Assembly: GCF_000026545.1 (NCBI RefSeq)
Contig: NC_011601.1
Source: Escherichia coli O127:H6 str. E2348/69
GTDB lineage: Bacteria; Pseudomonadota; Gammaproteobacteria; Enterobacterales; Enterobacteriaceae
DNA length: 64,000 nt
Strand: one strand, 5' to 3'
Shown here: piece by piece, positions 28,213 to 28,842 of the stretch
Position numbering within the stretch: position 1 is the stretch's first letter
Layout of the letters: each line of letters starts with the position of its first letter
Position numbers and translations under genes: made by a program
The notes under the pieces: generated by a model
What the model saw: the letters and a program-made list of their open reading frames with translations, nothing else
Databases searched by the model: none
Told to the model about the DNA's origin: nothing

Positions 28213-28359
28213 TCATTCATAGTGCAGGGTCAAATCATTCCCACTCAATTATTTACTAAACTCATAACTAATTGACTGAAAACAACTTTTAAAACAATGA
28301 AATTTTTCATACCGTTTTATATACCGTCACCGGAAATCAGTACCATGAAAAATGCCATG

Positions 28360-28842
28360 TCACCGGGTCAGCGAATCGTACTGCTTTTCACAGACTCGTC
28401 CGGCTTCTGCGGCCCGGTCAGCGTACTCTGCCAGCTGTCGGTTTCGCTCGAGAGATTTGCTGAGCACGTCGGCAAGCAAAACTCCGGTATCTGCGGCTGA
28501 CGCCCCAGTGCCGACAGTGGAGTTATACTGCCTGAGCTGCTCACGGATGGCAACGAGCTGTTGCTGCAACCTGCCAGCGCGAGCGGCAGCATCAAGAGCA
28601 TCATTGCGCGCCTTGTCGATCCTCTGCTGCGCTTCACGTTCATTGGTAGCTTTCTCCTGTTCATCGTGATTACGGGCTTTATCATCAGCCTGTTTCTGGT
28701 CTTCCTGCGCCTGCGCATACCCGGCATAGTACTGGCGGTCACCGTGGACATTCCAGGCAGCCACGCCGCTGATGACAAGAGCAGCAAGCATCGACACTAT
28801 AAGCAACTGTTTCCAGTACGCTTTGATGAATGCCCAGATCAT
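28360..28842 (-). CDS. Rz-like i-spanin
   Basis: 160-aa ORF, N-terminal TM helix then charged coiled-coil; last gene of the lysis cassette. Confidence 0.7.
28368..28643 (-). CDS. Rz1-like o-spanin lipoprotein embedded in the Rz frame
   Basis: Alternate-frame ORF inside Rz: AGGAGA ribosome-binding site, [26 protein letters not shown] signal with lipobox LAGC; start uncertain (28643 or 28604). Confidence 0.55.
   Translation of the reverse strand: MNVKRSRGSTRRAMMLLMLPLALAGCSNSSLPSVSSSGSITPLSALGRQPQIPEFCLPTCSANLSSETDSWQSTLTGPQKPDESVKSSTIR

Follow-up and report, generated by a model that had tools for sequence, protein, structure and literature searches.

The last host gene on the yfgI side of the locus is yfgI itself, which encodes a DUF5384 family protein and is followed by a bidirectional terminator hairpin, a short host spacer, and the lysis cassette of a prophage that runs to the end of the window (Table 1). 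The window is the whole 64-kb stretch of E. coli E2348/69 DNA that was analyzed, and all positions refer to it; the public E2348/69 chromosome NZ_CP059840.2 is 100% identical to it in reverse orientation. The host hairpin folds at -21.8 kcal/mol (z = -4.0) and is identical in the K-12 attB. A simple terminator scan made no call for it, a tool artefact in which the T-run is absorbed by stem extension, and an Rfam scan of 26000-31000 returned no known RNA family.

Table 1. Features at and around the yfgI-side end of the prophage, in window coordinates
Feature	Position	Strand	Basis
yfgI (DUF5384 family), last host gene before the junction	27603..28142	+	Open reading frame; RefSeq annotation of E2348/69 and K-12
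Host bidirectional terminator hairpin, yfgI/guaA, AAAACCCTCTGT-AGTA-ACAGAGGGTTTT	28183..28210	.	Sequence; RNA fold
B' arm, host guaA 3' untranslated spacer, yfgI side	28211..28233	-	Contiguous with core and terminator in prophage-free genomes
16-bp att core ATTGAGTGGGAATGAT	28234..28249	-	End of host homology; start of phage homology; repeat at far end
Phage P arm of attP, 110 bp, core to Rz stop codon	28250..28359	-	Aligns to attP P arm of SPN1S, phiV10 and epsilon15
Uetakevirus-like prophage, in-window part of 40,320 bp	28250..64000	.	Nucleotide identity to phages; source-genome annotation; core-to-core length
Candidate integrase arm-type binding site GTGACGGTAT	28321..28330	-	Only exact match in window; epsilon15 annotation
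Rz-like i-spanin (DUF2514), last lysis-cassette gene	28360..28842	-	PHROG 312, E = 1.6e-56; RefSeq
Endolysin, glycoside hydrolase family 19	28839..29465	-	PHROG 181, E = 1.2e-91; RefSeq
Two holin genes	29455..30163	-	PHROG 217 and PHROG 198; RefSeq

The in-window part of the prophage carries genes for lysis, O-acetyltransferase, tailspike, virion, terminase, replication and recombination. At the nucleotide level the prophage is 91-95% identical to Salmonella phages SPN1S, 65FD and PAT1, with 61-79% of the queried segments covered, and 77-82% identical to phiV10 and vB_EcoP_ZX5. All of its classified relatives belong to the genus Uetakevirus (epsilon15-like podophages), and its gene order (int...terminase-portal-capsid-tail-tailspike-oac-holins-endolysin-Rz) matches that of genus members. 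Together, segment nucleotide homology, gene order and the guaA att core point to an epsilon15-like (Uetakevirus) prophage.

The Rz-like spanin gene begins at 28360, 111 bp past the core, in agreement with the initial annotation, which had placed the start of the phage lysis genes about 110 bp from the guaA fragment. Embedded in Rz in another frame is a 91-aa minus-strand open reading frame (~28368-28643) with a lipobox, LALAGC; by comparison with the phiV10 and epsilon15 annotations it probably encodes an Rz1-like o-spanin lipoprotein, and the E2348/69 RefSeq record carries no annotation for it. Farther into the prophage, window positions 30300-35300 form a low-GC module (33-41%, vs ~52% in the remaining prophage) comprising a 335-aa open reading frame at 30351-31358 with no PHROG match, a PHROG-supported O-acetyltransferase at 31452-32525, and the tailspike at 32555-35284. 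This module is the part of the prophage least conserved with SPN1S-type phages, and is probably a serotype-conversion and receptor-specificity cassette.

The junction and its 16-bp core

The 15-mer TCATTCCCACTCAAT, found once in the window at 28235-28249, is the reverse complement of ATT GAG TGG GAA TGA, which reads I-E-W-E-stop. The initial annotation had recognized in it the C-terminus of GMP synthase, and the guaA ends of two strains bear this out: the 3' end of E2348/69 guaA reads ggcaagccaccagcaactattgagtgggaatga, with the same I-E-W-E-stop C-terminus, and the ETEC1738 GuaA translation terminates in ...KPPATIEWE*. In K-12, guaA follows yfgI directly, as had also been stated, at a distance of 92 bp and in convergent orientation.

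Comparison with complete genomes locates the end of the host sequence. The 350 bp from 27900 to 28249, which extend from inside yfgI through the intergenic terminator to the guaA end, are 95-99% identical in prophage-free genomes, and across thousands of prophage-free E. coli genomes host homology stops exactly at 28249. An 801-bp query spanning the junction has matches in 5,416 of 5,426 complete E. coli genomes, with prophage-free genomes covering query positions 1-350 only (window 27900-28249, annotated as yfgI and guaA). When the 148-bp region 28213-28360 was searched for as a contiguous sequence in prophage-free strains, none was found to hold it; these genomes, MG1655 included, match its first 37 nt only, and the P arm is missing from E. 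coli that lack the prophage. Homology to the free Uetakevirus phages SPN1S, SPN9TCW, phiV10, epsilon15 and others sets in at 28232-28234 and runs rightwards, and the hybrid host/phage junction is also visible in a three-way alignment. Two strains vary on the host side: EC1 has an IS200C between yfgI and guaA, and in G3/10 the match is limited to the 70 bp that adjoin the core, pointing to deletion or replacement of yfgI there.

For the far junction and the integrase, both of which lie beyond the 64-kb window, the sequence was taken from the matching public E2348/69 genome. No second copy of the core occurs inside the window with up to two mismatches allowed; the second copy lies at window-equivalent 68554-68569, ~4.5 kb past the window end. 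Each end of the prophage thus has a copy of ATTGAGTGGGAATGAT, the two copies forming a direct repeat at a distance of 40,320 bp (E2348/69 extract 6517-6532 and 46837-46852). The far copy closes an intact guaA of 1578 nt (525 codons), the K-12 gene also being 1578 nt, and a tyrosine integrase gene is found 192 bp past guaA. In-silico removal of the prophage yields a gapless 2264-column alignment with 97% identity to K-12 guaA-yfgI, and K-12 itself represents the unoccupied attB with a single core. In the free phages SPN1S, phiV10 and epsilon15, the core sits between the Rz gene and int with P-core-P' contiguous, and ~30 other records also contain an attP with this core and both of these arms. 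A search for free phages with no core between Rz and int found none.

The four att sites, namely attB of K-12 (...ctaccATTGAGTGGGAATGATttgaccc...), attP of SPN1S (...aaataATTGAGTGGGAATGATgtacagc...), the guaA-side junction of E2348/69 (...caactATTGAGTGGGAATGATgtacagc...) and its yfgI-side junction within 28213-28360 (...aaataATTGAGTGGGAATGATttgaccc...), show the classic Campbell pattern. One boundary of the prophage in this EPEC reference strain is thereby fixed to the base, with the core at 28234-28249 and phage sequence from 28250. The initial annotation had proposed that a phage inserted at guaA's 3' end, which the hybrid junction, the far core repeat with its adjacent tyrosine integrase, and the empty K-12 attB support. 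Its details call for some adjustment: the core is indeed duplicated, yet it extends over 16 bp, one base more than the 15-mer, and the junction is the left one in window orientation only, since a P-O-B' junction far from the integrase would be attR by the lambda convention.

The full-length integrase has Phage_integrase (E = 4e-22), Arm-DNA-bind_3 (E = 6e-20) and Phage_int_M domains in Pfam, also falls in PHROG 1, and shares 84-97% protein identity with the nearest relatives compared. Its architecture is predicted to be heterobivalent, as in enzymes that act on both arm-type and core-type sites. On the plus strand the candidate arm-type site in the P arm reads ATACCGTCAC, the reverse complement of GTGACGGTAT, and a partial copy, ACGGTAT, is found at 28309-28315. 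GTGACGGTAT is repeated on both attP arms in SPN1S and phiV10 and is invariant across divergent attP and junction alignments. The epsilon15 GenBank record lists it as an integrase protein_bind site on both attP arms, and also gives three IHF sites, two RNase III hairpins and one terminator. From this conservation and annotation, GTGACGGTAT is the site that the integrase would be expected to bind.

We conclude that 28213-28360 is almost certainly the P-O-B' junction of a 40.3-kb epsilon15-like (Uetakevirus) prophage integrated at guaA; the analysis returned no counter-evidence to integration. In the proposed mechanism, the circular phage genome bears attP between the Rz spanin gene and the integrase gene, and attP holds a 16-bp core that reproduces the end of guaA exactly, from its final four codons (I-E-W-E) through the stop codon to the next base. 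The tyrosine integrase, with its N-terminal arm-binding domain and P4/lambda-type catalytic domain, would recombine attP with the host attB, duplicating the core so that a copy stands at each prophage end. At the far end guaA now reads on into the P' arm, from which it acquires a new 3' UTR and a near-host terminator. The exact point of exchange would lie somewhere within the 16 bp, and IHF probably takes part.

Occupation of the site and history of the prophage

At least 80% of the 148-bp junction is present in 525 of the 5,426 complete E. coli genomes, and the guaA-P'-int junction in 567 of them, so that about 10% of complete E. coli are lysogens at guaA. The site is thus a common one for prophages, and at least one unrelated small island uses it as well. 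Strain ETEC1738 (NZ_CP122768.1) carries a 3.9-kb island at the same guaA site (extract 6351-10155), without an integrase, in which two DUF262 genes match HEC-06, GmrSD-like and SspE-like defence models. Imperfect copies of the core border the island (ATTGAGTGGGAGTGA towards guaA, ATCGAGTGGGAATGA towards yfgI), and their polymorphisms would put the crossover between core positions 3 and 12. Natural variation in the core includes ATC/ATT at position 3 and GAA/GAG at position 12.

The prophage could have integrated at guaA and since become defective, a cryptic element that neither excises nor forms particles. RefSeq flags three small early-region genes as partial pseudogenes and a 'pseudogenic tRNA-Gly' at ~53056-53168, in the prophage interval that separates the terminase and portal genes, where ARAGORN finds no tRNA. 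The flagged pseudogenes are, however, short hypothetical open reading frames, and the lysis, virion, terminase, replication and repressor-like genes are annotated as intact. Moreover, both att cores are perfect, the integrase retains its full length and three domains, and the 40.3-kb element falls within the 38.7-41.3 kb range of free Uetakevirus genomes. We therefore consider a cryptic state unlikely, though still a reasonable concern.

Less probable again, and in our view improbable, is that the guaA-prophage-yfgI segment was imported by homologous recombination from another lysogen, and not inserted in the strain's own lineage. Donors would be plentiful, as ~10% of E. coli are already lysogenic at guaA, and the junction sequence alone fits both histories; even so, the structure of the junction must still have arisen by site-specific integration at some point. 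We give almost no credence to the idea that the 15-mer arose by chance, or simply belongs to the normal DNA between yfgI and guaA, with no insertion: by itself a single 15-mer is poor support for a junction (0.08 matches per window in shuffles at up to two mismatches, with a match in 8 of 100 shuffles) and the surrounding context decides, but prophage-free genomes stay collinear only as far as 28249 and from there run on into guaA instead of the Rz gene, and the DNA to the right of 28249 is phage attP. This reading was rejected on these grounds. Insertion in the intergenic spacer instead of guaA was also rejected, as the core takes in the last 15 coding nucleotides. Integration at guaA by the site-specific route stands as the preferred reading.

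The 3' end of guaA and the integrase-side arm

Because phage and host do not differ over the stretch in which the crossover falls, integration leaves the GuaA protein as it was. The initial annotation had presumed that the reading frame was restored at the far junction; an intact guaA does lie there, yet no restoring was needed, as the coding sequence never changed. The sequence downstream of the core, comprising the 3' UTR and terminator, has been replaced at guaA by phage DNA. This P' arm consists of a 48-nt spacer, the hairpin AACCCTCTGTTTTTACAGAGGGTT (also given as CCCTCTGTTTTTACAGAGGG) and a T-run. The hairpin is identical to the displaced host terminator at 25 of 27 nt, and so provides a near-identical terminator. 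The original spacer and the host bidirectional terminator remain next to yfgI, and the phage lysis operon is now their neighbor on the other side.

What the phage arm has in common with E. coli is limited to the 16-bp core and these 25 of 27 hairpin nucleotides. Over the 95 nt from core through terminator, 85 are identical in Citrobacter sp. NCU1 and 82 in Citrobacter sp. Awk 4, vs 57 in K-12. Against the NCU1 guaA flank the arm is 92% identical over 88-90 nt (window-equivalent ~68482-68569), and this homology ends directly past the terminator. No integrase is present within 2 kb downstream of the guaA flank in NCU1; for Awk 4 the comparison spans ~145 bp downstream of the match. A pattern scan that took a single genome for each bacterial species brought up loci of two types: integrase-adjacent lysogens in Citrobacter werkmanii, Pseudocitrobacter, a Citrobacter MAG and K. 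pneumoniae ATCC 13883, and guaA flanks without an adjacent integrase (e.g. Citrobacter sp. NCU1). We tentatively suggest, short of favoring it outright, that the integrase-side arm is a guaA 3' UTR and terminator captured from a Citrobacter-like host. Alternatively, the Citrobacter flank may itself be the scar of an old prophage.

In the guaA-sense RNA the core can pair with downstream TCATTTCTATTCA to give a long hairpin (-34 kcal/mol, z = -6.7). Covariation analysis of this core/P' hairpin revealed no pair with changes on both sides, its 5' side being invariant coding sequence. The last guaA codons and the downstream phage sequence can form a 16-bp stem with several G-U pairs, also in phiV10, and in the epsilon15 record the stem is marked as an RNase III site. 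If capture from a Citrobacter-like host is correct, lysogeny in E. coli exchanges the native guaA 3' UTR for a foreign one, and in the lysogenic ~10% of E. coli this could change how stable the guaA mRNA is or how strongly guaA is expressed. The replacement of the 3' UTR and terminator by Citrobacter-like sequence is the sole mildly new angle at this locus, and could in principle affect guaA mRNA processing.

Comparison with known systems

Integration at guaA by epsilon15-type phages, which the initial annotation mentioned as unconfirmed, is documented. Phage vB_EcoP_ZX5 integrates at the guaA 3' end with the core attgagtgggaatgatt, as established from attB, attL and attR by means of PCR and Sanger sequencing, and the same attgagtgggaatgatt sequence is given as the attP of phiV10 and epsilon15 (PMC9782041). 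The integrases that cluster with that of epsilon15 are all directed to the guaA 3' flank (PMC8138268), and in O103:H25 E. coli a phiV10-like phage is inserted at guaA (PMC3293862). The E2348/69 junction is an instance of this system and in that respect already known. The E2348/69 prophage shares with epsilon15, phiV10 and ZX5 the core attgagtgggaatgat[t], the target in the last guaA codons, an attP between the Rz spanin gene and int, a homologous integrase, a copy of GTGACGGTAT in each arm, and a P' arm with a terminator hairpin. It differs from phiV10 and ZX5 in that its arms and structural genes are nearest to the SPN1S/65FD/PAT1 lineage, and from all three phages in its tailspike and O-antigen module. 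Exact identity to the E. coli attB extends over 16 bp in the E2348/69 prophage, compared with 17 bp in phiV10 and 18 bp in epsilon15.

In phage lambda, attP (POP') and attB (BOB') recombine to give attL and attR, using Int with arm-type and core-type sites together with IHF. Similarly, the E2348/69 prophage has a short identical core, a complex attP with predicted arm sites, a simple attB, and a predicted heterobivalent tyrosine integrase with an arm-binding N-terminal domain, the gene for which adjoins the P' arm. Unlike lambda, which targets the gal-bio intergenic region, this prophage has its target within the 3'-terminal part of a protein-coding gene, its core and arm sequences are not those of lambda, and its integrase belongs to a P4/SXT-like group and not to the lambda Int group (phiV10 annotation; PMC8138268).

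Elements that target gene 3' ends, including those with P4-like integrases at tRNA and tmRNA genes, SXT at prfC and CMGI-3 at guaA, supply a replacement 3' end (PMC8138268). The E2348/69 prophage resembles them in that the displaced 3' end is duplicated and the target gene left intact, with the P' arm bringing a terminator. It departs from them in duplicating 15 coding nucleotides only, and in that the replacement it brings, the 48-nt spacer and terminator, is not identical to the displaced E. coli sequence.
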